Shown piece by piece: positions 6,094 through 60,246 of a stretch of DNA of 64,000 nt; the first letter of the stretch is position 1, and each line of letters begins with the position of its first letter. A program made the translations under genes and the position numbers. The stretch is from assembly GCA_019894715.1 (NCBI GenBank), contig JAGXOA010000008.1, positions 6,710 through 70,709 of the forward strand. Direction: 5' to 3'. This stretch comes from Promethearchaeota archaeon. Lineage in GTDB: Archaea; Asgardarchaeota; Lokiarchaeia; Sigyniarchaeales; SOKP01. The notes under the pieces are model-generated. The model saw only the letters and a program-made list of their open reading frames with translations, had not been told where the DNA came from and ran no database searches.

Positions 6094-7317
6094 ATGGTAA
6101 AACGAGTTCTTGATTTATCTAAATTAGACCTTTTAGAAAGAGCCTCTCAATTCATTTATTCCACAGGATTAAATGATGGTACTTCTGAATTATGTAGGAA
6201 TAACATGAAATATGGTCTAGCTCAAATGCATTTGATTCAAGAAAAATATGGATTTGATCCTACAGCAACATTTATTTCCTCTCCTGATGAAACTATTTCA
6301 AGAAATAAATTAAGATGGGATTCTGGTTATGGTTATGGAGGAAAAATCGTATGGGGTTCAGGTAAGGATAAAATTGTCTTTTTAAATACAAAACCAAATC
6401 AATGTGGTATTTTAGTAGGTGGAATAAATGAAATTATTGATCCTTATACCATTATAAAGAAAATTAACGAAATAAACCAAAAGAAAATATATCATAATGA
6501 TATTTTGTTAGATTGGGATTATGGAATAAGTAATCATTTTATTAGTTTATTTGAAACAAAATACTTATCAGATATTGAATTTCCCCCTTATATTTTTTTG
6601 ATTCATGGTTCTGCTCCTGAAATTCGAGGAGATAAATATGGTATAGGTATTTATATAGATAAATCTAAAAATCTAAAAAATATGGCAATAAAAGAATCAA
6701 CAGTGTTTGGAGATCAATATATATTGGTAGATTCAAATGCTGATAAATATTTAGAATTAAATAACAAAGCATTGGATTTTTCAAAAGATAAAAGAGAGAT
6801 CATAGCGAAAGAATTATTTGAAAATGATTTTAAAATTATATGCAATCAACATCATCAATTTTTAGAGAATTTAAATACAATTTATTTAGGTTCTAGTTGC
6901 ACAAATATAGATAGCAGGGCAGTAGAATCAAATATCTTTCCAATTGTTTTAAGAGCTGATCTCCCGGCATATCTATTTGAAGGAAAAAAAAATTTTTCAA
7001 TTACTACAATAAAAAATCAAGATTTTGTTGATAGAGCTGAGAAATATAACGTTTTAGATAGACTTCAAAATGCGAATATTTTACCTCATGGAGCAGGATA
7101 TGCTTTCCCAGATATTAAGCACGTGACTGAAGTTATAGAATATAAGGAACAAAGATATTTTGTTTTGTCTTGTAATAATAAAGCAAAAAAGATAATTCGA
7201 GACCCAAATAACGTGCAATTTGAATATCGAGGAAGGGTTATTATTCTTAAAACACTTCAATTAGATTTAGGAGGAATTATTGCAAAATTAAATCCAATAT
7301 TTAGTTTAAAATTATAG
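6094..7317 (+). CDS. divergent RtcB-like protein (RNA 3'-phosphate ligase family)
   Basis: The RtcB motif order is recognisable: WDSGYGYGGKIV (cf PDxHxGxGxxIG), KPNQCGILVGG (cf DIGCG), ISNHFISLFE (cf GNHFIE), LIHGSAPEIRG (cf HSGSRG), CNQHHQF (cf NCHHNY) and LPHGAGYAF (cf HGAGR). At 407 aa it is shorter than canonical archaeal RtcB. Confidence 0.6.
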   Translation: MVKRVLDLSKLDLLERASQFIYSTGLNDGTSELCRNNMKYGLAQMHLIQEKYGFDPTATFISSPDETISRNKLRWDSGYGYGGKIVWGSGKDKIVFLNTKPNQCGILVGGINEIIDPYTIIKKINEINQKKIYHNDILLDWDYGISNHFISLFETKYLSDIEFPPYIFLIHGSAPEIRGDKYGIGIYIDKSKNLKNMAIKESTVFGDQYILVDSNADKYLELNNKALDFSKDKREIIAKELFENDFKIICNQHHQFLENLNTIYLGSSCTNIDSRAVESNIFPIVLRADLPAYLFEGKKNFSITTIKNQDFVDRAEKYNVLDRLQNANILPHGAGYAFPDIKHVTEVIEYKEQRYFVLSCNNKAKKIIRDPNNVQFEYRGRVIILKTLQLDLGGIIAKLNPIFSLKL

Positions 7318-7374
7318 TTTGAATATTTTATTATAATATAATTCTATTTTGTGACTTTTACTAATACAAATAAT

Positions 7375-8556
7375 TTAGGAATCAAAAATTATTTGGTTCC
7401 CACAGTATCTACACGCTTTTATTTCTTTATACATTTTCTCAAGACATGGTTTATGATAATATGAATTACAATTTTCACATTGAAAAACATCATAATCTCC
7501 TAAAAATATACTATGACAATATGAACAAGACGCATCTATATTTGTGATTTTTTCTTTCCTGACAAAAATCATTTTAGTATTATTATCCTCAAGATCTTCA
7601 ATTATCTTAATTTTTTGTGTATTTTTTTCGTATTCACTAATAATTTTTACCATCGATATTGGAACTCTCAATAGAAAATAACAAAAAGGACATCGGAATA
7701 CATTATTTTTAAACTCTGTTTTTCTAGCCCATAATGCAGCGCAAGATAGATGCATAGGATGTTCACATGATGGACAATATCGTCCTTCAGAGAAGAAATC
7801 CGCAGATGTTAAAGGGGATTTATTGGAATGACATATTTGACATTTTTCTTGCACTGATCTTTGATTAGTTATCATTATTCTTATTTCCATTATGGTAGGG
7901 CGCCTAAGAGGTAATGAAATTTCGTTAAGAAGTGGAGGAATTTCTTTCTTTTTATTAGGTGAAAAGTAATCTGAAGTTTTTTTAAGATTTTTCTTAGAAG
8001 CAAATGCTTTTCCTGCATTTATTATTGCTTTAACATTACTGAAAAATCCAAATTCTCCTCCGGTGATTTTTGAAATTTTTCTCAATATGTTGTTTTGAAA
8101 ATTTTTTGATAGTCCAATTTGACAAGTATCAACAACAATACCTAATCCCTTGGCAATATCAATAATTCTATCTATTTTTTTACTTGCTTCTATTTTATTA
8201 TCACTTATAATTATAATTCTAGAAACTTTTCCGCCAATCTTTCGCATTTCTTCTACTAAAATTTGTAGAGCAAACGATATGGCATCGTGTAAAACACCAT
8301 TTCCAGAAATATGGATCTTATCTAAAGCTTTTAATAGTAATGTAGCATTGTTGGAAAAAGGGCTTAACTTTTGAGTTATCTTTCCAAAACATAAAACTGA
8401 AATCCTATCTTTTGGATCTATCAAGAACTTGTTTTGTATCAGATTTGAAACCATTTTTTTGGCGATTGATAATCTATTTGGTTTAAAATCGCTTCTTAAC
8501 ATTGATCTTGAAGAATCTATTAGTATAACTGTATCTTCTATTTTAATTTCTTCCAA
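7375..8556 (-). CDS. vWA-domain protein with two C-terminal Cys/His zinc modules (TFIIH p44/Ssl1-like architecture)
   Basis: N-terminal MIDAS VILIDSSRSMLRSDFKPNRL (the DxSxS...D-x-KPNRL signature of Ssl1/p44 and Rpn10-type vWA domains), then ITGGEF. Zn modules are CQICHS..CPSCEHPMHLSC..FRCPFC and CSYCHS..FQCENCNSYYHKPC..CRYCGN. Confidence 0.7.
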   Translation of the reverse strand: MEEIKIEDTVILIDSSRSMLRSDFKPNRLSIAKKMVSNLIQNKFLIDPKDRISVLCFGKITQKLSPFSNNATLLLKALDKIHISGNGVLHDAISFALQILVEEMRKIGGKVSRIIIISDNKIEASKKIDRIIDIAKGLGIVVDTCQIGLSKNFQNNILRKISKITGGEFGFFSNVKAIINAGKAFASKKNLKKTSDYFSPNKKKEIPPLLNEISLPLRRPTIMEIRIMITNQRSVQEKCQICHSNKSPLTSADFFSEGRYCPSCEHPMHLSCAALWARKTEFKNNVFRCPFCYFLLRVPISMVKIISEYEKNTQKIKIIEDLEDNNTKMIFVRKEKITNIDASCSYCHSIFLGDYDVFQCENCNSYYHKPCLEKMYKEIKACRYCGNQIIFDS

Positions 8557-8663
8557 TTTTTTTCTTGCCTTAAAATTTGTTTATATATGGGAGGAGGATA
8601 ATTATTATTGTTTCTATTGGTTTATATTTATTAATAAATCTCTATAAATTTTTGTATAATTCA

Positions 8664-8907: not shown

Positions 8908-10290
8908 CTACAATATATTTTCTTTTTTTTTTAGAAAATTATATGCAAATAAAGCATATACTTTTATTGAATTTATAAAATCATTCAATTCAATTGATTC
9001 ATTACTAGCATGAGCTAATGACGCGTTACCTGGCCCAAATAAGATCGTTTTTTCACAATAATTAGAATTCCTATAGTACACAGCATCTGAACAAGCAGGA
9101 AAAAGAAAATAATATGGTTTTTGTAAATATATCTTATTGACGATGTTATAAAATAGTTTTATTTCTTCAGAATCTCTCCAATTTTTCCAATAAGATGCTT
9201 CTTTGTCTAAAAGAATATCATAATCAAAAAAGATATCATTCTCACCTTCTATTTGATCTTTCATTTTATATCCACATTCATTAATTATTCTTCTTATAGC
9301 ACTAATAATATCTTCAGTTTTTTGTAAAGGTAATAATCTAAAATCCATAGTTATCTCACATATATTAGGTATCACGTTGTCTTTTATTCCACCTTTTATG
9401 ATGGTTACGCTTTTAGTAAGTGTTGTAAATACTTTTATAAAATTTTGTATTAGAGGTTGTTCATTATAAAATTTTATAAAAGCTTGTTCATCTGGAAATG
9501 TTACCGAAACTAATTGTTTTAATTCATCTAGTGTTATTGGCGGATTTACTTTTGGGATATAGTCATCTATTTTATCAATATTATTAATAAGATCATTTAT
9601 CATATATATTGCATTCTTTCCCATAGCAGGGAAGGAAGAATGGGATGAAATACCATTAGCAATAATTCTTATCTGTAAATGGCCTCTTTCTCCAAAAATT
9701 ATTGATTTTGGAAGAGGTTTAAAGCCAGTTGGCTCTCCAATTACAGTAAAATTACAATCTATGGAATTAGAGATATTTTTAATAATCCATTCTGTACCCT
9801 CATCTCCTATTGTTTCTTCATCTGCTACACTATGTAATATTAGATTTCCATCTAATTTTATATTTAAAGATTTCAAAACCTTTAGAGAAATAATCATTGC
9901 TGCTAAACCACCTTTCATATCAGTAGATCCTCTACCATAAATATATTTGTTCCTTTTTATTTCTCCAGAGAGAGGATGATATTTCCATTCTGAAACATTT
10001 CCAGATGGTACAACGTCCATATGCCCATTAAAAATAAGATTTTTGAATTTAAAATTATTGTTTAGATAGGCTACTAGATTGGCTCGATTGTTACCGAATT
10101 TAAATATTTCATTTTTAATACCATCCTTATCTAAATAATTTTTTATTATTTTTGCTAGATTTAATTCATTTCCAGGAGGATTATAAGAATCTGTTTGTAT
10201 TAAATTTACTAAAAAATCAATAAATTCTTCTCTTTTATCGTCTATATATTCTTTTATTAATTCTTCTGTCATTTCTCTAGGATTCAACAT
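8908..10290 (-). CDS. M20-family metallopeptidase (ArgE/DapE/acetylornithine deacetylase-like)
   Basis: Motifs FNGHMDVVP, GRGSTDMKGG, HSVADEETIG and ERGH. Confidence 0.8.
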   Translation of the reverse strand: MLNPREMTEELIKEYIDDKREEFIDFLVNLIQTDSYNPPGNELNLAKIIKNYLDKDGIKNEIFKFGNNRANLVAYLNNNFKFKNLIFNGHMDVVPSGNVSEWKYHPLSGEIKRNKYIYGRGSTDMKGGLAAMIISLKVLKSLNIKLDGNLILHSVADEETIGDEGTEWIIKNISNSIDCNFTVIGEPTGFKPLPKSIIFGERGHLQIRIIANGISSHSSFPAMGKNAIYMINDLINNIDKIDDYIPKVNPPITLDELKQLVSVTFPDEQAFIKFYNEQPLIQNFIKVFTTLTKSVTIIKGGIKDNVIPNICEITMDFRLLPLQKTEDIISAIRRIINECGYKMKDQIEGENDIFFDYDILLDKEASYWKNWRDSEEIKLFYNIVNKIYLQKPYYFLFPACSDAVYYRNSNYCEKTILFGPGNASLAHASNESIELNDFINSIKVYALFAYNFLKKKENIL

Positions 10291-10439
10291 TATATCAATC
10301 TTATTTTATTTATATCAATTGATTATTTTTAAAAATTCTCTTAGGAATGTATATTTTTAATAAATTTAAAAAATTTAGGAAATTTTAATATTATTAAATT
10401 ATTTAATTAATAAAAAATAAGCTACAAATGGTTATTTGA

Positions 10440-13400
10440 TTGCTTTATCACAAAAAACAACTAAGAAATAAAATAGTTACTTGTATCGTTATTTCTATTT
10501 TTCTGATATCCAGTTTCTCAATTTTTAATTTTTCAGGAACTAATATAGAGAATAATGTTGATAGCGAAATTGATGGGCCTAATAATATATTATCTAGTGC
10601 TGCTTTTGATATTCCATTTATAGGAAGTGGAGATGATCAAGAAGGAAGACTTTATTTTGAAGAAAATTCTTCTTCATTAGGCAATAATAATGGACAATTC
10701 AATATTCCAGCGCCTGCGACAAATACATTTCTTGATTATGGAGATATGTATTTTGAATATGATGAAGATTATACAACAGAACATATAATAGAAGATCATG
10801 ATGCCTTAGGATTACCATTAGAAGATCAAATCAATTTTGGATGTACTAAACAAGGATCTGAGATGATAATAAACACTGGTACTATAGTTGGTGATTTTAA
10901 AAATGATTTATTTGGATTTGATAATAATTCATACGTAACTATTACATCAGATGGTGCAGGTGAGATTGATTTTACAATAGATTCAGACTTTTTCGGCACA
11001 TCTTTTGAAACAATAAATTACGGGACAAAGGACTTTGTTAAGGAAGAAATACTGGGATTTATTATGATTTTATCATATAATCTAACTGCTAATGCGGATT
11101 TAACAATTTCTATGTATGATGATTCTAATTCAAAATGGGTAAATGTAGTTAATCAACTTAGTCTATTAGCAGGTGGTCCAGATGAAATAAATAGATTAGT
11201 AGAAAGAATAGTAAACACAAATCTTAAATTTATTAATGGATCGGATTACAGCAATATTAATTTTCTATTTGAAGGCACTGGTACATATGATATTAGTTTA
11301 CATGAATTCAGTGTAAATGCGACTTATGCTTTTCAAGCTGATTTAGATTACCAATATCCATTAGCTTTAGAACTTGATATTAGAGGAAATAATACTCTTT
11401 TAAATGGATTTTATGCATGGATTAGAACTGTAAATTACTCTGCAGCAGAAACAACAGAATTAAACATAACACTTTATAAGTCAAATAAAAAAGTCATAAA
11501 TAGAAATAATCTTAATGCAGATGATGATGCGATTCCTAATACGCTTATATCAGATTATTCAATCTCATATGTAAACTACACAGAAGATAAAATAGATTAT
11601 TTTAAATTTGAAACAACTTTGAGATTAGATTTATATAATTATTTTATAAGAATAGATGTAAATAACTCTGATGTATATAAATTAGTTACTCTGGATTCTG
11701 ATGATGAAAGTTATGGAGACGATGAAGAAGATCATATTCTTAAAAGATATACAGGTACTTATTGGGAAAGAGTAAGAATAAATATAAATCCTGGTGTGAC
11801 ACCTTATACTACTGGATTTTTAGATGCAAGTAGTTTTAAACTTAATATAACCAGAGGTTATATGCCATCTGATTTTATTTATGATGATGTTCAAACTCAA
11901 AAAATAGATGGAATATCAGTTGAAGGTACAAATGATCCATATTTTGATTATAGTGTTGCTGATGGATATCAATGGGGCCTTGGAAAATGGAACAATACAT
12001 TTAATAATGCTATAACTAATGGAGGAAGTTCAGATTTTACTGTGACACTAACATGGAACAATAGTGAAATCATTGATTTTTACTTTGATGTCTTTTATTA
12101 TGTCAGAGCTTATTCAAAACATAATGTTGGTGCCCTTTATTCAACCTATTATAACGAAATCTCTGAATGGGCTTTCACTTTTACTGCTTCATTTAGTGGT
12201 TATACATGGGATTTTGTAGATTTATGGTTTGTCTATAATAAAAATTTTGAAAGCACATCTCTCTATACCCCACTTAATGGTACTGTAAATGCTTTAGAAG
12301 ACACTAATGGAGAACAAATTTTAAATAGCACTCATGACAAATTGATTCTTCCATATGAAATGGTAGAAGAAATTGATGGCGTCTACGAACTTAATACAAC
12401 GAGTTATAATGCTATTGATAAAGTTTATAGTTATCTTGATTATAGTGGCAATTTATGGGAAAACCAAGGTTTTATGAATGGAGATGTTATGAAAATAGGA
12501 GCGGACATAAGAGGAGATGAAAGAATAGCACCTAATAATGGTGATATTAATGCTACATTGTATTTTCCTGATGGATCTATCTATATTTATGATTTAGATT
12601 TGACAGGAACATTATCAAGTAATGGAGAAATTCTTTCATATACCTTCAATAATGACGTTTTTCTAAATGTAGATCATCCAACAACTCATAGTGGAACATA
12701 TAATCTTGGTATGATATGGAATAATGGAACCTCAATTGGATGTAAAAGTATCCCTATTTATTTTGATGAATACAATATTACCTTTGGAGATTTAACATTT
12801 AATCAAGATTTAGATTATAATCTACTAAGTCTTGAAGAAATTTCAAAAATTACAGATTTGGATTCAAGAGATCCGCAAGAATATGATTTATATCTTGCTT
12901 CAATAAATCAGACATCTAGTTTTCCTGCAGATTTCTATGCAATAAATAATTCAGAAATTAATCAAGAATATATTTATGAGAGTTATATTGGCGACTTAAC
13001 AATTAATCTTCAATCATTTTTACAAAACGAGTCAATAATAAATCCTGATGAAAATATCAAATTCAAAATTACATTAGAAAATCGGGATCCTATTATAGAT
13101 ATAAATCTTAAGGTATCAGTCGAACTTGTCTCATTATTAAATAATCAATGGATTATTGCTAATGATACTTCTCCAACTCAAGTTTTAAAACAATCTGGAG
13201 ATCCAAATGGTGATAATATCAAAGATTTTATGATAGATTTTAATATACCTATAATACAAGCAGGGGGAATTTGGGATGGCGTTAATGCACCTATCCGAAT
13301 GGGTGGTGCTAAAGCTATTGTAAAGATTTTTCTAGATGATGAAATAATTGGAATATATGAATGTCCTGATTATGCTTTACTTGTTGAAGAAACTGAGGAC

Positions 13401-14534
13401 CTTTTTGAAGGTTATATTATTTCATTAAAAAGTTCTTTATCATCTAAAGCTATAGCATTTGAAAAGATTTTTAATAGAGAAGATTGCACATATAATCCAC
13501 AAAATACTGTTATTTTATTAAATATCATAGACAAAAATTCTTTAAGCTCTTACAGCCCATTTTTATTGAATCAAACGTTAAATGAAGCAAGTAAATTTAC
13601 AGAAGTCACAATTACTCCAGAATTACCTACAAAAGGAAATGAATTTAATATCAGTTCTATTCTTACCTCTGAATTTGGTACACCTATTAGTGGTGTAGAA
13701 ATAATATGTCAATATAATAATTCAGGAATATGGACAAATATAACAGACTCACCAAAAACATCTGATTCTATAGGTTATACTAAATTTACAATAGATACAG
13801 AAGGATTGGGTATTGGAGAAAATAACATAACTATCAAACTAAAGTGGCAAGGCACAAGTCTTTATTTAAACGAAACACATGAATTAACAATAGATTTCTT
13901 TTCATTTACAGATTTACTTTTAGTTAGAGCAGGAATTCAAGGATCTACCATCGTTAGAAATAAAAAAAATTATTTACAAATAGAATTTACTAATATTGGA
14001 GATTCTATACTAAATATAACAGATATAACCCTTGATTTTACTGACTCTGGAATTATACCACCATACGAAATAGTTGAACAAAATCTAAATTTACTTTATG
14101 AACTTAGATCAGGTGAATCTACATTAGTAACGATTGAGATTGCATTTCAAAATATAGCAACTGATATATTATCTTTTAATATTTCAATTACAACTAAAAA
14201 TATTGAGACTGATTTAGAATATAGTAATAACTTGACTATAATAGCAGCTGTTTTAGACAAATCTGTATTTGAAGATATAATCAAGCTAATAATGATCCCT
14301 ATTATACTTCTTATTGGATTAATATGGGTTGCTGGATTATTATATTCATTCCGCCTAAAGAAGAAAATTGAAAAACCTGTCGAGAAAGAAGATAAAAGGA
14401 AGCCACGAAAAGGTAGGTATGTAAAAGTTTCTGAAATATCTAAGAAAACACCTCAAAAAGAAGAAAAGACACCAGAAAAGAAGAAAACTACGGACTTAGA
14501 CTCATTACTAGAAGAAGAAGGATTAGAAGATTAA
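10440..14534 (+). CDS. giant secreted/surface protein with N-terminal signal anchor and C-terminal TM anchor plus Lys-rich tail
   Basis: 1364 aa. N-terminal IVTCIVISIFLISSFSIFNF. C-terminal IKLIMIPIILLIGLIWVAGLLYSF followed by RLKKKIEKPVEKEDKRKPRKGR. Many N-x-S/T sequons. Confidence 0.7.
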   Translation: MLYHKKQLRNKIVTCIVISIFLISSFSIFNFSGTNIENNVDSEIDGPNNILSSAAFDIPFIGSGDDQEGRLYFEENSSSLGNNNGQFNIPAPATNTFLDYGDMYFEYDEDYTTEHIIEDHDALGLPLEDQINFGCTKQGSEMIINTGTIVGDFKNDLFGFDNNSYVTITSDGAGEIDFTIDSDFFGTSFETINYGTKDFVKEEILGFIMILSYNLTANADLTISMYDDSNSKWVNVVNQLSLLAGGPDEINRLVERIVNTNLKFINGSDYSNINFLFEGTGTYDISLHEFSVNATYAFQADLDYQYPLALELDIRGNNTLLNGFYAWIRTVNYSAAETTELNITLYKSNKKVINRNNLNADDDAIPNTLISDYSISYVNYTEDKIDYFKFETTLRLDLYNYFIRIDVNNSDVYKLVTLDSDDESYGDDEEDHILKRYTGTYWERVRININPGVTPYTTGFLDASSFKLNITRGYMPSDFIYDDVQTQKIDGISVEGTNDPYFDYSVADGYQWGLGKWNNTFNNAITNGGSSDFTVTLTWNNSEIIDFYFDVFYYVRAYSKHNVGALYSTYYNEISEWAFTFTASFSGYTWDFVDLWFVYNKNFESTSLYTPLNGTVNALEDTNGEQILNSTHDKLILPYEMVEEIDGVYELNTTSYNAIDKVYSYLDYSGNLWENQGFMNGDVMKIGADIRGDERIAPNNGDINATLYFPDGSIYIYDLDLTGTLSSNGEILSYTFNNDVFLNVDHPTTHSGTYNLGMIWNNGTSIGCKSIPIYFDEYNITFGDLTFNQDLDYNLLSLEEISKITDLDSRDPQEYDLYLASINQTSSFPADFYAINNSEINQEYIYESYIGDLTINLQSFLQNESIINPDENIKFKITLENRDPIIDINLKVSVELVSLLNNQWIIANDTSPTQVLKQSGDPNGDNIKDFMIDFNIPIIQAGGIWDGVNAPIRMGGAKAIVKIFLDDEIIGIYECPDYALLVEETEDLFEGYIISLKSSLSSKAIAFEKIFNREDCTYNPQNTVILLNIIDKNSLSSYSPFLLNQTLNEASKFTEVTITPELPTKGNEFNISSILTSEFGTPISGVEIICQYNNSGIWTNITDSPKTSDSIGYTKFTIDTEGLGIGENNITIKLKWQGTSLYLNETHELTIDFFSFTDLLLVRAGIQGSTIVRNKKNYLQIEFTNIGDSILNITDITLDFTDSGIIPPYEIVEQNLNLLYELRSGESTLVTIEIAFQNIATDILSFNISITTKNIETDLEYSNNLTIIAAVLDKSVFEDIIKLIMIPIILLIGLIWVAGLLYSFRLKKKIEKPVEKEDKRKPRKGRYVKVSEISKKTPQKEEKTPEKKKTTDLDSLLEEEGLED

Positions 14535-14701: not shown

Positions 14702-15061
14702 TTATAATTTTGAAATTGATGTTAAATTTCTCTTAAGTAGACCCAAAGATGCTCTACCATCAACACCTGCAAGAGCGACCAATACAAGTTTTTTAGATCC
14801 TACTAAAACAGCAAAACCCTCTTCTAATTCAATAGTAGTGTTTTTAATTATACCTTTTTTAATATCATTCCCTAAAACATTAGAATCATTTAAAATTTGG
14901 GTACAAGCTTTTGCTATTTTTGAGTGATTCATATCTGTAAGAGTTTGTCCTATAATCACTTTTCCACTGGGATCAGCAGCTATTAATCCTTCACATTCTG
15001 GAACTAAATCCATTAATTCTGCTAATTTTTGTTCAATTACTTGTTTACTCATAATTCTCAA
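14702..15061 (-). CDS. Roadblock/LC7 (MglB-like) domain protein
   Basis: 119 aa. Family-typical pattern ..CEGLIAADPSGKVIIGQTL...GFAVLVGSKKLVLVALAG. Confidence 0.65.
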   Translation of the reverse strand: MRIMSKQVIEQKLAELMDLVPECEGLIAADPSGKVIIGQTLTDMNHSKIAKACTQILNDSNVLGNDIKKGIIKNTTIELEEGFAVLVGSKKLVLVALAGVDGRASLGLLKRNLTSISKL

Positions 15062-40776: not shown

Positions 40777-41373
40777 TCAAGCGTCCTTCATTAATTTTTT
40801 TCCCGAGCACCTCATTCGATACAATTTCCCACTAAATGGATGGATGATGGCCACCAAGTCATCTACCATCTCACTTTCTGGACTTTTTTTATCCAATTCA
40901 TGCAAGTAATTGACAGAGACGTTAAATTCTGCTAAATAATTTTGCAAATATTCAAATCCAAACCTAGTGAGCCAGTCCTTATACGTCAGCAGGACATGCG
41001 AAAAACAATTTTTTCTCGCATCTCGCACCATTTTCCACAGATTTTTCCGGCGGATATTCAATCCTGAAGCTACGTCCTTGTAAACATGATTTACCTTTAG
41101 ACCGATTTTTTTTGCATGCTCTTTGAGTTGTTCCACTTGCCGTTCCAAGTCACCTCGCTTGGATTGTTTGTGTGAGGAAACTCTTTCATAAATGACGCAG
41201 GTGTTTTTAAAACTTGAATGAGGATGAGATATTTCTTGTTTATAGGAATTCTTAAGTATTAATCGCTTGATTTCGAGAACAGGAAATCGTCGATGACCTC
41301 CCAGAGTTCTTACGCAAGTAATTTTTCGCTTTTTTTCCCATCGACGTAGAGTCTTGATGCACACTCCAAGCAT
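40777..41373 (-). CDS. tnpA: IS607-type serine recombinase transposase (MerR-like HTH plus resolvase catalytic domain)
   Basis: HTH LGVCIKTLRRWEKKRKI and catalytic VIYERVSSHKQ..DLERQ. The homologous frame continues upstream (..YIIGITAL before the first Met) without a canonical start codon. Confidence 0.8.
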   Translation of the reverse strand: MLGVCIKTLRRWEKKRKITCVRTLGGHRRFPVLEIKRLILKNSYKQEISHPHSSFKNTCVIYERVSSHKQSKRGDLERQVEQLKEHAKKIGLKVNHVYKDVASGLNIRRKNLWKMVRDARKNCFSHVLLTYKDWLTRFGFEYLQNYLAEFNVSVNYLHELDKKSPESEMVDDLVAIIHPFSGKLYRMRCSGKKLMKDA

Positions 41374-51002: not shown

Positions 51003-54000
51003 ATGAAATCAAATAATATAGAAACTAATAAATCAGAGGAAATTTATCAATTAATTTTAGATAATATTGATGAATTAATTGGAATTCTTAATCCTTATAA
51101 AAAATTTAACTTCGAATTTATTAATGAAAATGTTTTTGAAAAAATTCTTAAATACACCAAGAAAGATCTTATTGGTAGATCTTTTTTCGATATTATTCAT
51201 CCAAATGATGTAAATAAAATCGAGACACTTCTGTACCAAAAAAAAGCTCTAACAAAAGAATCATTAGAAATCATATTAATTGATAATTCTAAAAAAGAAA
51301 AATGGTTTAGGATTAAAATAAGACATTTCAAAAATAAAAAAAAACAAAAAAGAACTTTTGTAAATCTTAAATCTATAGAAAAACAAAAAGATTTAGAGAA
51401 AATATTAGATGAGAGTAAAGACTCTCTAAAGGTAATAACTAATAAAATACCTGAAATTCGTTTTTGGAAATTATTTAGCCCTGAAAATTTTGAAGACGCC
51501 TTATATAGCTCATATGAAATGCTTCAAATTTTTATAGAAAATATTCCCCAATATATTTTCTGGAAAGATAAAAATCTAAACTATTTAGGATGTAATTATC
51601 ATTATGCAAAATTAATTGGAATAGATATCCCAGAAAATATTATAGGTAAAAAAGACAAAGATCTAATCTCTAATCATGATAAATTAAAAATTTTAGAAAT
51701 TAATGAAAAGAAAGTATTAGAGTCAGGAAATGCACAATCTAATGAACTAATAAAATGGAGAATAGGAACAAAAGACTCACTTTTAAAAATAAATAGAATA
51801 CCTTTATATGATTCTAATAATATTCCTGTGGGTTTATTAGTAACCTATGATGATATTACAGAATTGATTTCTAAAGAGGAGAAAATCCGTAGAGAAAGAG
51901 ATATCTTAGAAGGGTTTATGGAAACTAGTCCAGTAGGCATTATAATTATAAATAGAAATGGAATTATAACTTTCATTAATAATCAAGCCGAAAAGGTATT
52001 TAATATTAAAAAAAGTAAGGTTCTCCTAACAAATTTAAATGATCATATTTGGAGAATGTTAGATATAAATGGAAATAAGATTCCTGAAGAAAAAGAATTA
52101 TTTAATATTGTTAAAAAAACAAAATCCTCTGCATTTGATTTAAAATTTTTAATCAAGGATTATAAAAATAAAGATATTTTGATATCAGTAAATTCATCTC
52201 CTCTCTTTAATGATTCTGGAGAGTTTAATGGTTTAATTGCTACAATTGAAGATATTACAGAAAAGCAGAAAGCAAAACAAGAATTAATAGAATCTGAACA
52301 AAAATTTAGAACTATTTCTGAACAATCATTAATGGGAATAGCAATTATTCAAGAAGGTCAAATTAAATATTTAAACAAACAATTAGTTAATATCACAGGA
52401 TATAAATCTGAAGAACTAAAAAAATTAAAAAAATTTGAGTATCTTGAAATTATTCATCCAGAAGATAAGGAATTTGTTCTCAAAAAGCTAGATAGTATCC
52501 TAAATAAAGAATTAGGCGAATATCATTTCCAATTTCGAATGTATAATAATTTAAATATAATTAGATGGGTTGATAATTTTTCTACAAGAATTATTTATCA
52601 AGGAAAACCAGCAATTTTATCGACAATTATAGATTTTACGGAAAAAAAGATAGCAGAAATAAAATTAAAAGAATCTGGAGAAAAGTATAAAAATTTATTT
52701 GAAAATTCTCCAAATATGATAGCCTTATTGGATATAGAAGGTAATTTTTTAACCGCTAATGCAAAATTATTGAATTTTTTTAATTTTAAAAAAGAATATC
52801 TTGTAAATAAGAATCTTCAAACTCTTCAAAATTATATTCCTGATCACTTTGATGATTTAATTAGTAAATTTAAATTAGTGCTAAGAGAAAAATCTTTTAA
52901 TCCTTTTGATATCAGAATACAGTTAGAAAATAATAAAACTCATTGGTTAAGTATCCAAGCAAATTTAACTGACATAGAAGGGAAAAAAATAGTTCAAATT
53001 ATTATGCGAAATATTGATAATTATAAAAATTCGATAAATATCATTCATCTCAATGAACTTAGATTAGAAACTCTAAGTATTCTAAATCAAATGACAAAAG
53101 CATCTGATAAAAATTTAGTAGAATACGCACTTAATAAAGCCGTAGAACTTACTAAAAGTATTTTCGGCATATTAATCTTTCCTAAAAAAAAAGAAAATGA
53201 AATATATTTTTCTAAGATATTAAATGATGCAGATCCAAATCATTTAAACTCAAATGGCTATGATACCAAAATTCTTAAAAATATGTTAAAAGCTAAAGAT
53301 ATTATTATCAAAAATCAAGTAGATGATGATTTCTCGGTATTTGGTGATAATAATCATTTACCTTACTTAAAGATAGAGAGATTTATGATTATTCCCATCA
53401 AGGAAGAAGGAAAAACTGTAGCAATAACATGTGTGATTAACAAATCAAGAGAATATACAAACTTAGACATTAGTCAATTAACACTATTGATAGATGGTGT
53501 TTGGAAGACAATACAAAAAAAAAAATCAGAAGAAGCATTAAGACTCAGTGAAAAAAGATATCGAAGTTTACTTAATTCATCTTCAATGGGTATTATAGAA
53601 ATTAATTTACTTACTGATGATATTACTTTCATCAATCCTAGCTTATTAAAAATGCTGGGATATGAGAAGGAACACATTTCTAAAAAATTTATATTTAAGA
53701 AAATTTATTCTGAAGATATAGGGAATTTATTTAAAGATTCAGAAGAAAAAGAATTAGAATTTCGAGTCTATGATAATAAAGGAAAATTAAAATGGTTGGC
53801 GGGAAAAAGAACAAATCAATTTAATCAAAATGGTGATTTAGTTAGTTTTAGATTATGGTTAGATGATGTTACTGAAAAGAAAATGTATGAAAAACTTATA
53901 ACAGAATTAAATATCAATTTTCTTAATTTTACAACCGATATACAAGCTAATATTCAATTACTACTTGGTACTTGTGTTAATTTGTTAGGCGGAATATTAG

Positions 54001-55112
54001 CAATTCATGTTAATAAAAATGAAAAAGAAAAGAAATTCAGAATAAAAACAAATGATAATAGAACATTTTATTATTATGATTTTGAAAAATATGATAAAGA
54101 TTTATTTGTTTTTGAGTTTTTTAAGGGAGAACATGATTTTCCCCAAACAATTTTAGATATTGACAAGAGTTTATATGCAGATACAGATCCTATTATGCTA
54201 AATTATAATATAAAGAGTGGATATGGAAAATTAATTAAATCTGAGGATAAATTTAATAATGCTGTTTGTGTTTTCTTTGATCATAATCCAAATATAACTC
54301 ATGATTTTCAACTAATACTTTTTTTAATTGCAGATGCTATAGCGATAGAGCAAAGTAGATGGAAAGTTAAACAGAATCTAAAAAATCAAAATAAAATGCT
54401 TAATGAAATGAATAAGCTTAAAGTTGAATTATTTTCTAGAACATCACATGAATTAAAAACACCCCTTATATCTATTAAAGGTTTTACAGAACTTCTTTTA
54501 AAAATTCATAAATCAAAAATGGATTCTGATATGATTTCCATTATAGAGGAGATTATGGATGGGGCAAAACGCCTTGAGAAGATAATAAATATGCTTTTAG
54601 AGAGCTCGAAATTAGATCAAAATCTTCTAATTCTTAATAAAAAAGAGGATGATTTAATATTCTTATTAAGGTTTTGTGTTAATGAACTTCAAAGTTTAGC
54701 AAATCTAAGAAATCAAAAAATAAATTTAGAATTAGATGATAAACTTGTAGTAAAATTTGACAAAGAAAGAATATATGAGGTTGTATCCAATCTTCTTGTA
54801 AATGCTATAAAATATACCCCTCCAAATGGAACTATAAATGTAAAATCTGAAAGAATTAAAAATGATTATGTAATCTCGATTTCAGATACGGGAGTAGGTC
54901 TTACAGATATAGAAAAAAAACAATTATTTAAACAATTTGGTAAAATAGAAAGATATGGTCATGGTTGGGATCTTGGAATTGAAGGTACAGGATTAGGATT
55001 ATATATTTCAAAAAAAATAATTGATTTACATAATGGAAAGATATGGGCGGAATCTGAGGGAAGAAATAAGGGAAGTATTTTCAGTTTTTCTCTTCCTTAC
55101 TCAAATGATTAA
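51003..55112 (+). CDS. multi-PAS (plus GAF-like) sensor histidine kinase
   Basis: 1369 aa. Repeated PAS-type blocks (..DITE(K/L)...E..L..SE.K(F/Y)R..). HisKA H-box FSRTSHELKTPL. HATPase_c N/G boxes LLVNAIKYTP, DTGVGL and GTGLGLYISKKI. Confidence 0.85.
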   Translation: MKSNNIETNKSEEIYQLILDNIDELIGILNPYKKFNFEFINENVFEKILKYTKKDLIGRSFFDIIHPNDVNKIETLLYQKKALTKESLEIILIDNSKKEKWFRIKIRHFKNKKKQKRTFVNLKSIEKQKDLEKILDESKDSLKVITNKIPEIRFWKLFSPENFEDALYSSYEMLQIFIENIPQYIFWKDKNLNYLGCNYHYAKLIGIDIPENIIGKKDKDLISNHDKLKILEINEKKVLESGNAQSNELIKWRIGTKDSLLKINRIPLYDSNNIPVGLLVTYDDITELISKEEKIRRERDILEGFMETSPVGIIIINRNGIITFINNQAEKVFNIKKSKVLLTNLNDHIWRMLDINGNKIPEEKELFNIVKKTKSSAFDLKFLIKDYKNKDILISVNSSPLFNDSGEFNGLIATIEDITEKQKAKQELIESEQKFRTISEQSLMGIAIIQEGQIKYLNKQLVNITGYKSEELKKLKKFEYLEIIHPEDKEFVLKKLDSILNKELGEYHFQFRMYNNLNIIRWVDNFSTRIIYQGKPAILSTIIDFTEKKIAEIKLKESGEKYKNLFENSPNMIALLDIEGNFLTANAKLLNFFNFKKEYLVNKNLQTLQNYIPDHFDDLISKFKLVLREKSFNPFDIRIQLENNKTHWLSIQANLTDIEGKKIVQIIMRNIDNYKNSINIIHLNELRLETLSILNQMTKASDKNLVEYALNKAVELTKSIFGILIFPKKKENEIYFSKILNDADPNHLNSNGYDTKILKNMLKAKDIIIKNQVDDDFSVFGDNNHLPYLKIERFMIIPIKEEGKTVAITCVINKSREYTNLDISQLTLLIDGVWKTIQKKKSEEALRLSEKRYRSLLNSSSMGIIEINLLTDDITFINPSLLKMLGYEKEHISKKFIFKKIYSEDIGNLFKDSEEKELEFRVYDNKGKLKWLAGKRTNQFNQNGDLVSFRLWLDDVTEKKMYEKLITELNINFLNFTTDIQANIQLLLGTCVNLLGGILAIHVNKNEKEKKFRIKTNDNRTFYYYDFEKYDKDLFVFEFFKGEHDFPQTILDIDKSLYADTDPIMLNYNIKSGYGKLIKSEDKFNNAVCVFFDHNPNITHDFQLILFLIADAIAIEQSRWKVKQNLKNQNKMLNEMNKLKVELFSRTSHELKTPLISIKGFTELLLKIHKSKMDSDMISIIEEIMDGAKRLEKIINMLLESSKLDQNLLILNKKEDDLIFLLRFCVNELQSLANLRNQKINLELDDKLVVKFDKERIYEVVSNLLVNAIKYTPPNGTINVKSERIKNDYVISISDTGVGLTDIEKKQLFKQFGKIERYGHGWDLGIEGTGLGLYISKKIIDLHNGKIWAESEGRNKGSIFSFSLPYSND

Positions 55113-59295: not shown

Positions 59296-60246
59296 TTAAA
59301 TTCTTCTTTTAATATCTTTAGCTCGGCTTCTTAATGTTACTTCTGTACATTTGGCAATTTCTGCAATTTCAGCTTGAGTTTTACGCTCATTTGTTTCTTT
59401 AGCAGCCATGTAGATTACAGATGCCGCCATACCTTTTGGATCTTTTCCTGTTCTTATAAGCCCATTTTTAGTTGCAGTTATTAACATATCTACAGCTCTT
59501 TTTTGAGTTTTCATAGTTAAACCTAAATCATTTCCAAATCTATAAACAAGTTGTACTGCTGTTATTGGTTGATATTTAAGTTTCAAAATAGGTAAAATTT
59601 CTTTTACAATCATTCCAAGTGAACGTATTACTGTTCTCCTTGAGGTCATTGAAGCATCACTTACCTCTTCAAGTAGCCTAGGAAATTCATGAACTCTTAT
59701 AGCCGCATACAAGGATGCTGCGATAAATCCATCAATAGATCTACCCATTGTTAGTTTTCTCTTTGCAACTTCAGAATAGATTTTCCATGCTGTATCTCTA
59801 ATATATTCTGGTATGTTCATTTTAGAGCATAACATTTTTAATTTTGGTTTTGCCTCCCAAAAGTTCCTTTCAATACTTGATATTAATGATTGCTGAATTT
59901 TGGATAATCTTAAAAATAAGGTTTTTCCTTTTGCTCCTAATGCTTTTCCTTTTGAATCTGTTTTAGTATTAGCTATTGTCGTTCTTGGACCAAATTCTCT
60001 CCAACGAGGTTCAGTCCTCTTTCTTTTTTCAATTTCTTCAATAGTATATGCCCTTCTTTCATTTCCTACGAGATCGCGTCCCAATACCATCCCACAATTT
60101 ATACAGACAGAATCTCCATCTCTTATTTCAATTAAGGGATTATTACAACATTTTTGAGTGGCAATTTCTTCTTCCATCTTTACTTTTTTTTCGCGTAACT
60201 TTTCTCTGTAATTAGAACTCATTTCATTCATGATAAAAACCTTCAT
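59296..60246 (-). CDS. tfb: transcription initiation factor IIB (TFB)
   Basis: N-terminal Zn ribbon CCNNPLIEIRDGDSVCINCGMV, B-reader/linker and two cyclin-like repeats (..GRSIDGFIAASLYAAIR.., ..GKDPKGMAASVIYMAAK..). The start may be Met6 (MNEMSS). Confidence 0.9.
   Translation of the reverse strand: MKVFIMNEMSSNYREKLREKKVKMEEEIATQKCCNNPLIEIRDGDSVCINCGMVLGRDLVGNERRAYTIEEIEKRKRTEPRWREFGPRTTIANTKTDSKGKALGAKGKTLFLRLSKIQQSLISSIERNFWEAKPKLKMLCSKMNIPEYIRDTAWKIYSEVAKRKLTMGRSIDGFIAASLYAAIRVHEFPRLLEEVSDASMTSRRTVIRSLGMIVKEILPILKLKYQPITAVQLVYRFGNDLGLTMKTQKRAVDMLITATKNGLIRTGKDPKGMAASVIYMAAKETNERKTQAEIAEIAKCTEVTLRSRAKDIKRRI

Follow-up and report, generated by a model that had tools for sequence, protein, structure and literature searches.

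Von Willebrand factor A (vWA) domains recur in eukaryotes beside the ubiquitin machinery, in Rpn10, p44/Ssl1, BABAM1 and the plant vWA-RING ligases RGLG and WAV3/SOR1, and the joining of a vWA domain to a RING in eukaryotic ligases is already known from RGLG, from WAV3/SOR1 and from p44/Ssl1 itself. Archaea possess XPB- and XPD-like helicases, and to our knowledge no archaeal counterpart of the TFIIH subunits p44, p34, p52, p62 or p8 has been reported. The organisation of p44 is NTE-vWFA-eZnF-RING (PMC6422496), the first element being an N-terminal extension (NTE). RING finger proteins are counted among the Asgard eukaryotic signature proteins (PMC11291895), and an Asgard E1/E2/RING-E3 cascade is active in vitro (bioRxiv 10.1101/2023.07.25.550441), which makes an Asgard ubiquitin setting plausible for a new protein with RING-type fingers. 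Here we describe such a protein from a Promethearchaeota archaeon, encoded in 64,000 nucleotides of contig JAGXOA010000008.1 (assembly GCA_019894715.1, positions 6,710 to 70,709), the whole of which we call the window. Its N-terminal vWA domain is followed by two C4HC3 zinc modules, and what is new is the family it represents, which is uncharacterised, apparently restricted to Asgard archaea and built of a vWA domain plus a tandem C4HC3 RING pair. We give about an even chance to the reading that it is a cytoplasmic, vWA-tethered RING-type E3 ligase for ubiquitin or a ubiquitin-like protein, or an E3-like adaptor, of the Asgard ubiquitin system. The gene and the parts of its product are as follows.

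7375..8556, minus strand: complete gene for the vWA + two-RING protein, stop codon included (from the listing of open reading frames; TTG start, 393 aa)
8002..8538, minus strand: vWA domain, residues 7-185 (Pfam, family profile against the PDB, AlphaFold2 (AF2) and Foldseek)
7852..8001, minus strand: linker, residues 186-235, with a conserved FASKK motif, a conserved L-x-E-I-A-x-x-L-R-R-P helix segment and a low-confidence stretch at 193-205
7666..7851, minus strand: Zn module 1, residues 236-297, a C4HC3 RING/PHD-type finger
7537..7665, minus strand: inter-module linker, residues 298-340, with a helix at 300-311, a low-confidence stretch at 313-322 and a strand at 326-332 (AF2)
7387..7536, minus strand: Zn module 2, residues 341-390, a C4HC3 RING-type finger

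The 393-aa product is 100% identical to an NCBI entry, 'MAG: VWA domain-containing protein [Candidatus Lokiarchaeota archaeon]', MAG standing for metagenome-assembled genome. It has 411 relatives at E<=1e-3 in a protein database clustered at 90%, and 510 matches among the 1.8 billion cluster representatives of a database clustered at 50%, where full-length relatives reach about 25-30% identity. Given the identical entry and these relatives, we regard the open reading frame as a real Lokiarchaeal gene under strong selection, not a chance frame. The best 120 relatives are 57-81% identical with full-length coverage, and nearly all are 388-400 aa long, a few being truncated or slightly longer. Two samples were used in the comparisons that follow, 24 members spanning the diversity of the family (down to 25% identity) and 117 close orthologues. 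The position of the TTG start agrees with the orthologues, M1 being invariant across their alignment, and at least five subfamilies can be discerned in the 24-member alignment.

Every family member that carries a source name is Asgard. The protein matches come from Lokiarchaeota/Promethearchaeota and from MAGs labelled Thor, Hod and Hel, and the genome loci add MAGs labelled Hermod and Odin, together with one whose label, 'Nanopelagicaceae', is evidently wrong. We do not trust these labels for fine taxonomy because differently labelled MAGs share the same level of identity and the same gene order; the family as a whole nevertheless seems, from its matches, to be restricted to Asgard archaea. 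Three members (P0161, P0166 and P0174, the first two Helarchaeota-labelled) are longer variants of 619-686 aa with a vWA domain, one C4HC3 module and about 350 further residues without a Pfam match. Two others (P0122 and P0123) share 45% and 48% identity with the window protein; their NCBI accessions (MHA1730627.1 and MHA1729673.1) lie about 1000 apart, and they may be paralogues in one MAG. A tblastn search of the 64-kb window found no paralogue of the vWA-RING gene there. Literature searches returned no description of an Asgard vWA-RING, p44-like, Ssl1, Tfb4 or Rpn10-like protein, although a line-item annotation in the asCOG supplements is possible.

The ligands of module 1 are C239-x2-C242-x18-C261-x2-C264-x4-H269-x2-C272-x16-C289-x2-C292 and those of module 2 are C344-x2-C347-x12-C360-x2-C363-x4-H368-x2-C371-x10-C382-x2-C385. 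All 16 are identical in the 117 orthologues and, with the exception of C371 (90%), invariant in the 24 diverse members, a pattern from which we would expect both modules to bind zinc. An earlier reading of this gene from the letters alone (the first-pass annotation) had taken module 1 for a RING-H2-like finger in which an HPMH motif provides ligands. That assignment was rejected: H266, the first histidine of the motif, is Arg in 115 of the 117 orthologues and is therefore no ligand, which leaves module 1 as C4HC3. For module 2 the same annotation had the order of Cys and His right, although not the long spacers, which are x12 and x10 and not x11 and x11. The AF2 model of the full-length protein is confident (pLDDT 83.9, pTM 0.75; 86.8 for the C-terminal half alone), with residues 193-205 of the first linker below a pLDDT of 50 and a second low-confidence stretch at 313-322. 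A strand-strand-helix-strand unit surrounds each set of ligands, and in each module a 10-residue helix (270-279 and 369-378) starts right past the His ligand, a placement that is typical of RING rather than PHD fingers. Conservation extends into the first linker, where 90% or more of the 24 diverse members share A214 and L217.

To which class of eight-ligand fingers do these modules belong? In profile searches against the PDB, module 2 retrieved the Arkadia RING first (4.9e-10), followed by those of RNF4, RNF165, RNF24, RCHY1, AMFR, HRD1/synoviolin, RLIM and RNF38, with PHD and C1 domains 4-5 orders of magnitude behind the RING E3 domains in E-value. Module 1 gave a weaker series headed by the FANCL RING (1.6e-3) and continuing with SLX1, listerin and EL5, and a profile of the entire C-terminal half likewise retrieved RING E3 ligases and not p44. 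The RINGs of RNF165, RNF12 and RNF38 were matched by the Foldseek search with the model of the C-terminal half at a probability of 0.99; its top match was a two-RING fusion, RING1B-BMI1 (6e-3), and p44/Ssl1 appeared at 1.2e-2 with probabilities of 0.6-0.8. RING-E2 complexes such as those of Cbl and FANCL make their E2 contacts through an Ile after ligand 1, a Trp four residues past ligand 6 and a Pro after ligand 7. Module 1 has exactly this trio: I241, W276 and P290 stand opposite identical residues in the FANCL alignment, all three are identical in the 117 orthologues, and among the 24 diverse members W276 is invariant, with conservation of I241 and P290 at 90% or more. In module 2 the corresponding positions are occupied by Tyr, Met and Arg, so that the E2 surface is conserved there only in part; as judged from its residues and profile, module 2 is the finger with the better overall similarity to RING-H2 domains and the less canonical E2 surface.

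In a rival explanation the C4HC3 modules are fingers of the PHD or C1 kind that bind a peptide, a lipid or a nucleic acid and have no ligase activity, with the vWA domain serving as a scaffold or adaptor unrelated to ubiquitin transfer. Ligand order and spacing speak for it, since C4HC3 with C-x2-C-x4-H-x2-C is the arrangement of PHD fingers, and so do the Pfam scores of the window protein, which we listed to E<=10: on module 1, PHD reaches 23.0 bits against a gathering score of 24, and on module 2, C1_1 reaches 23.6 and Prok-RING_1 23.9. Over the 24 members, counted at E<=1, PHD is matched by 21 and C1_1 by 18, and the PHD fingers of KMT2D, TAF3 and Jade-1 and the C1 domains of PKC are among the PDB matches of the modules. 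The missing linchpin Arg and the lack of ubiquitin genes close by, both taken up below, also favour it. Yet in the profile searches RING E3 domains rank ahead of PHD and C1 domains throughout, by the margin already given for module 2, the helix past the His ligand is of the RING kind in both modules, and the invariance of the Ile/Trp/Pro trio in module 1 would be difficult to account for if there were no E2-like partner. In the same member-wide count zf-RING_2 is matched by 22 of the 24 (best 6.3e-8), zf-RING-like by 17, FANCL_C and Prok-RING_1 by 14 each, zf-ANAPC11 by five and zf-rbx1 by four. We consider binding fingers of the PHD or C1 type somewhat unlikely.

Several observations nonetheless count against a ligase. 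The Foldseek matches of the zinc half are all weaker than E=1e-3. The linchpin, the residue after the last ligand that is Arg in many active RINGs, is Tyr or Phe in module 1 (68 and 49 of 117) and Gly in module 2 (117 of 117). Ligands 3-6 are spaced as in PHD fingers (C-x2-C-x4-H-x2-C), and on the window protein PHD and C1_1 score about as well as the RING models, zf-RING_2 reaching 19 bits against a gathering score of 27.3 and every finger model staying under its own. The 64-kb window holds no gene for ubiquitin, E1, E2 or a JAB/deubiquitinase.

Balancing these points, we place both fingers in the RING superfamily, and their closest recognisable relatives, by profile similarity, appear to be E3 ligases. 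With the RING-H2/C4HC3 ligases Arkadia/RNF111, RNF165, RNF38, RNF4 and FANCL they have in common the eight-ligand finger, the helix past the His, the profile similarity (Arkadia for module 2, FANCL for module 1) and, in module 1, the Ile/Trp/Pro surface. They differ from RING-H2 ligases in having C-x2-C instead of C-x-H at ligands 3-4, in lacking a linchpin Arg and in occurring in tandem.

The N-terminal domain is a vWA domain, and what had to be decided was whether it is a specifically eukaryotic one. AF2 predicts an alternating beta/alpha fold with pLDDT mostly above 90 and a first strand that begins at residue 7, and residues 8-170 match the Pfam families VWA_2 (58.3 bits), VWA (49.4) and Ssl1 (PF04056; 40.3). 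The Ssl1 score passes its gathering score of 27 and is the highest for any sequence tested here, although both general vWA families outscore it. The residues D14-x-S16-x-S18 and D119 form a site resembling the metal ion-dependent adhesion site (MIDAS), and D14, S16, S18, G87 and D119 are identical in the 117 orthologues. If we read the SGNG segment correctly, Gly87 stands where a MIDAS usually has its Thr, which would make the MIDAS partial. The motifs that the first-pass annotation had pointed to are all present: DSSRSM at 14-19 and DFKPNRL at 23-29, for which the counterpart in human p44 reads DGSRTMEDQDLKPNRL, and a later GG patch, TGGE at 165-168, which the HMMER alignment puts opposite ETGGTY of p44.

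Among solved structures, the best sequence-profile match of the Asgard vWA domain is that of Rpn10. A single-sequence PDB search gave the S. pombe Rpn10 vWA first (4.4e-7) and human p44 second (1.5e-6), and the family profile gave human Rpn10/PSMD4 at 1.8e-18 (70 bits), p44 at 2.3e-15, the bacterial vWA protein 4rck at 2.3e-11 and BatB at 1.8e-8; the D-x-S..D[FY]xP[TN]R signature is common to Rpn10 and the Asgard protein. The top NCBIfam match is BatA, at 32.9 bits against a cut-off of 380. Foldseek with the vWA domain alone ranked p44 highest (TM-scores of 0.84-0.88) and Rpn10 behind it (0.80-0.84).

How specific are these resemblances? As controls we used 42 RING-less vWA relatives, chosen as the nearest RING-less relatives of the window protein and carrying no taxonomic assignment, a selection to be kept in mind with the comparisons that follow. 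From the vWA domains we built two hidden Markov models (HMMs), one for the 24 Asgard members and a second, the other-vWA HMM, for the 42 controls. Human Rpn10 scored 74 bits with the Asgard HMM and 78 with the other, S. pombe Rpn10 68 and 75, and human p44 53 and 51, while the Asgard vWA domains themselves scored a median of 110 bits with the other-vWA HMM, above the scores of Rpn10 and p44 with the Asgard HMM. The distributions of pairwise phmmer scores did not differ between the two vWA sets (Mann-Whitney p=0.27 for p44; p=0.37 and 0.93 for the two Rpn10 proteins). Two candidate marks of eukaryotic kinship were rejected in the process. A Pfam Ssl1 score above threshold does not prove p44 affinity, as the BatA-type proteins P0243 (30.7 bits) and P0217 (29.2) also exceed the gathering score and, at E<=1, Ssl1 is matched by 27 of the 42 RING-less relatives (best 7.9e-8) and by 16 of the 24 family members (best 4e-10, the window protein). 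Neither is DSSRSM..DFKPNRL a signature specific to p44 and Rpn10, as the pattern DxSxS..D[FYL]xP[NST]R[LF] is common among relatives without zinc modules, P0243, which bears a BatA N-terminal domain, being one of them. A residual p44 signal persists: within the test set, the seven best phmmer matches of the p44 vWA domain all belong to the family, the window protein leading with 34 bits and the best other vWA domain reaching 23.

We conclude from these sequence comparisons that the domain probably falls in a broad clade with the BatA-type, Rpn10 and p44 domains, and that no special tie to the eukaryotic members can be demonstrated. The specific affinity to Ssl1 or Rpn10 that had been proposed for it thus largely dissolved into a generic relationship to bacterial vWA families, BatA being the top NCBIfam match and Rpn10 and p44 scoring about equally with both profiles. 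BatA/BatB-type and stand-alone prokaryotic vWA proteins share the DxSxS..D[FY]xPxRL and TGG motifs with the Asgard protein. They carry N-terminal membrane segments (the BatA domain), TPR repeats or CDC48_N and have no C4HC3 fingers, whereas the Asgard protein has neither a BatA domain nor a membrane segment at its N-terminus, its vWA domain starting at residue 7.

These results also bear on the possibility of an Rpn10-like factor, which would use its vWA domain to dock on the proteasome or on a Cdc48-type unfoldase and would serve there as a receptor or as a ligase tethered on site. The first rank of Rpn10 in both PDB searches, ahead of p44, agrees with such a role, as does the CDC48_N domain fused to two of the RING-less vWA relatives (P0255 and P0267), fusions that might bear on the Rpn10-like branch of the vWA clade. 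Against it, human Rpn10 is no closer to the Asgard family than to the RING-less, prokaryote-type vWA proteins, scoring equally well with the profile of the latter; where Rpn10 has ubiquitin-interacting motifs past its vWA domain, the Asgard protein has two RING-type fingers, and the Pfam search with the window protein, to E<=10, matched no family of such motifs; genes for the proteasome or for Cdc48 are absent from the neighbourhood; and we know of no archaeal versions of the lid subunits that Rpn10 contacts. We hold an Rpn10-like role to be very improbable.

The resemblance to p44/Ssl1 (GTF2H2) needs to be set out in full. Both proteins have a vWA domain, a Cys-rich module and a C-terminal eight-ligand RING-like module in the same order; their lengths, as had been remarked earlier, are nearly equal (393 aa for the Asgard protein, 395 for p44); their vWA domains share DxSR[ST]M..D[FL]KPNRL and the TGG patch; and the RING cysteines of p44, 345/348/360/363/368/371/382/385, are matched by module 2 ligands at 344/347/360/363/368/371/382/385. 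The structural check that had been suggested came out in favour of p44, as the top 19 PDB matches of the full-length model in Foldseek are all p44/Ssl1 chains, over about 390 columns and with E-values down to 3e-16. An hhalign comparison of the family with human p44 (a query sequence 100% identical to PDB chain 28jm_E) gave a probability of 98.5%, an E-value of 2.3e-15 and 320 collinear columns spanning p44 residues 60-390. The eight ligands of module 2 fall one-to-one on p44 C345, C348, C360, C363, C368, C371, C382 and C385, and the module 1 pairs C261-P-x-C264 and C289-P-x-C292 fall on C291/C294 and C305/C308, which are the sole cysteine pairs in the middle zinc-finger region of p44.

Is the protein, then, an archaeal counterpart or ancestor-type of p44, that is, a non-catalytic scaffold that regulates an XPD-type helicase by binding it with the vWA domain and locks other partners in place with its zinc modules, much as the eZnF and RING of p44 engage p34 and p62? 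Besides the alignments just described, the highest vWA TM-score, the phmmer ranking and the Ssl1 score all speak for it. The collinear alignment, however, is carried by the vWA domain, because the C-terminal half alone aligned with p44 220-395 at a probability of only 12%, module 2 being the part aligned and the module 1 region remaining unaligned; module 2 by itself reached 53% with the p44 RING. Moreover, p44 is not among the best 60 PDB matches of module 1, module 2 or the C-terminal half in the profile searches, and Pfam C1_4, the TFIIH C1-like family, has no match on the window protein at E<=10 and is outside the 25 most-matched families over the 24 members, so that of the Pfam families proposed as tests for p44 kinship Ssl1 passed and C1_4 did not. 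The vWA domain is equally like that of RING-less prokaryote-type proteins, and neither its Ssl1 match nor its DFKPNRL motif is specific. The ligand spacing shared with p44 is real, yet it is also the generic spacing of PHD/C4HC3 fingers.

Further differences concern the build of the two proteins. The Asgard protein lacks the N-terminal extension, which in TFIIH contacts XPB: its first strand begins at residue 7 and the hhalign alignment at p44 residue 60. Full-length Foldseek superpositions have a root-mean-square deviation (rmsd) above 20 A, which implies that the domains are arranged differently from those of p44. In the Asgard protein the middle module has eight invariant ligands and is a C4HC3 finger of the binuclear type, whereas the Cys and His residues of the corresponding p44 stretch fit only a C4 finger; as its fifth ligand, the last module has His in the Asgard protein and Cys in p44; and the Asgard zinc half alone, without significant p44 similarity, is nearer to RING-H2 E3 ligases. 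No gene for XPD, XPB, p34 or p62 is present in the 64-kb window or among the recognised neighbours at the 80 loci described below, and archaeal XPD works as a monomer. We therefore regard a p44-like scaffold as distinctly improbable. The evidence says that the resemblance is one of architecture and domain superfamily and not of specific orthology, and on present evidence the vWA-RING protein would not be an archaeal TFIIH subunit. The p44/Ssl1 architecture seen in the first-pass annotation accordingly stands as regards domain order, superfamily and ligand spacing and fails as regards specificity, given the RING-less controls and the 12% for the zinc half, and what had been offered as a new eukaryotic signature protein is better called a useful lead.

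We return to the E3 ligase or E3-like adaptor that we prefer. How might it work? The N-terminal vWA domain would be a protein-binding module that chooses the partner or substrate, probably through the MIDAS-like face formed by D14, S16, S18 and D119, and the two C4HC3 fingers would form a tandem RING unit. Module 1 is likely to be the finger that docks E2~ubiquitin, because it retains the Ile/Trp/Pro surface with which known RINGs hold E2~ubiquitin, and module 2 may support it or serve as a second RING, in the manner of heterodimeric RING pairs.

Such a ligase would differ from those described so far. The small RING E3s of archaeal and Asgard E1-E2-E3 operons also have a RING-type finger and a ubiquitin setting, but they are short and are encoded inside ubiquitin/ESCRT clusters, whereas the Asgard vWA protein is larger, has two fingers and is encoded outside such clusters (PMC5654768; bioRxiv 10.1101/2023.07.25.550441). 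The plant RGLG and WAV3/SOR1 ligases likewise place a vWA interaction domain and a RING on one polypeptide (PMC12647413, PMC11047095, PMC5924906). As compared by description only, they differ in having one RING, in the other domain order of WAV3 and in the copine-type vWA domain of RGLG.

The diversification of RING E3 ligases in eukaryotes is an open part of eukaryogenesis, and the Asgard family, which joins a vWA domain of the Rpn10/p44 clade to two E3-type RING fingers in an order collinear with p44, offers a concrete protein with which to ask two questions. Do Asgard archaea have substrate-adaptor E3 ligases beyond the small operon RING? And is p44 descended from such a ligase? An affirmative answer to the second would mean that the Asgard family preserves the ancestral state of p44 and, through p44, of p34 also, the ancestor having been a vWA-RING-RING ubiquitin ligase. 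Under that scenario, which we consider quite unlikely, one of the zinc sites in the first finger may have disappeared in the eukaryotic stem, leaving the C4 eZnF, the His of the second finger may have been replaced by Cys to give a C4C4 RING, and the protein may have been recruited as an XPD scaffold. If it is true, the non-helicase core of TFIIH gains an archaeal root, and the E3 activity that has reportedly been found for yeast Ssl1 would be explained. The family is thus both a good experimental lead for Asgard ubiquitin biology and the basis of a testable hypothesis on the origin of p44.

Gene order around the vWA-RING gene is conserved, as a comparison of 80 Asgard loci showed, although the neighbours gave no clue to function: the synteny is strong, yet no ubiquitin or TFIIH component is present among the recognised conserved neighbours at the 80 loci, the other conserved neighbours having no Pfam match. 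The search for XPD/XPB and ubiquitin E1/E2 homologues that had been recommended with the p44 proposal likewise found none within the 64-kb window. Directly upstream on the same strand, in about 72 of the 80 loci, is an M20/M25/M40 peptidase gene (8908-10290, minus strand in the window). The gap that separates it from the vWA-RING gene is usually 18-150 bp, which suggests possible co-transcription in the relatives; it is 351 bp in the window, leaving room for the vWA-RING gene to have a promoter of its own. One further feature falls in this gap.

8580..8588, minus strand: possible TATA-like box (ATATATAAA), 24-32 nt 5' of the TTG start, read from the sequence

We regard this box as no more than a putative promoter element. 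The window is AT-rich (G+C about 21-33%).

On the other side, a convergent gene (6094-7317, plus strand) encodes a 407-aa protein without a Pfam match that is found at 62 of the 80 loci with 56-84% identity. Most loci have about 2.1 kb between the vWA-RING gene and the homologue of this gene, compared with about 55 bp in the window (7318-7374) and at locus L001. At locus L007, the one locus at which this gap (9180-11343) was read, it holds a 686-aa open reading frame on the same strand that reads as a methionyl-tRNA synthetase; a gap of only about 55 bp implies that no such gene is present at this position in the window or at L001. Beyond the peptidase gene, a 1364-aa protein without a Pfam match (10440-14534, plus strand) recurs at 66 of the 80 loci with identities of only about 29-69%, and so is evolving more rapidly than the proteins encoded around it. 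Hydrophobic segments at its N-terminus and close to its C-terminus can be seen by eye, as can a Lys-rich tail, and it may be a surface protein. A 119-aa protein (14702-15061, minus strand), conserved at 62 of the 80 loci, has a weak match to Roadblock/LC7 (20.3 bits against a gathering score of 23); proteins with a Roadblock domain are already known as one class of Asgard eukaryotic signature proteins.

Searches of the window for RNA genes found neither a tRNA nor a match to an Rfam family. The rest of it encodes hydrogenase, Hdr-like and Hyp proteins, an ADP-forming acyl-CoA synthetase and enzymes of histidine and purine biosynthesis. Between 31166 and 40325, genes resembling those of the small and large subunits of NiFe-hydrogenase are followed by genes for a ferredoxin and an HdrB-like CCG protein and then by a HypD gene, a gene of the AIR-synthase family (HypE by our reading) and a HypF gene, a set that fits a hydrogen-dependent Lokiarchaeal metabolism. 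Adjoining the histidine-biosynthesis genes is a gene for a serine recombinase with a Resolvase domain and a MerR-type helix-turn-helix (40777-41373, minus strand), which may mark the remnant of a mobile element. The sole general-transcription-factor gene of the window encodes a TFB/TFIIB homologue (59296-60246, minus strand) and is unlinked to the vWA-RING gene. Finally, a 1369-aa sensor histidine kinase with many PAS domains and a GAF domain is encoded at 51003-55112 on the plus strand.

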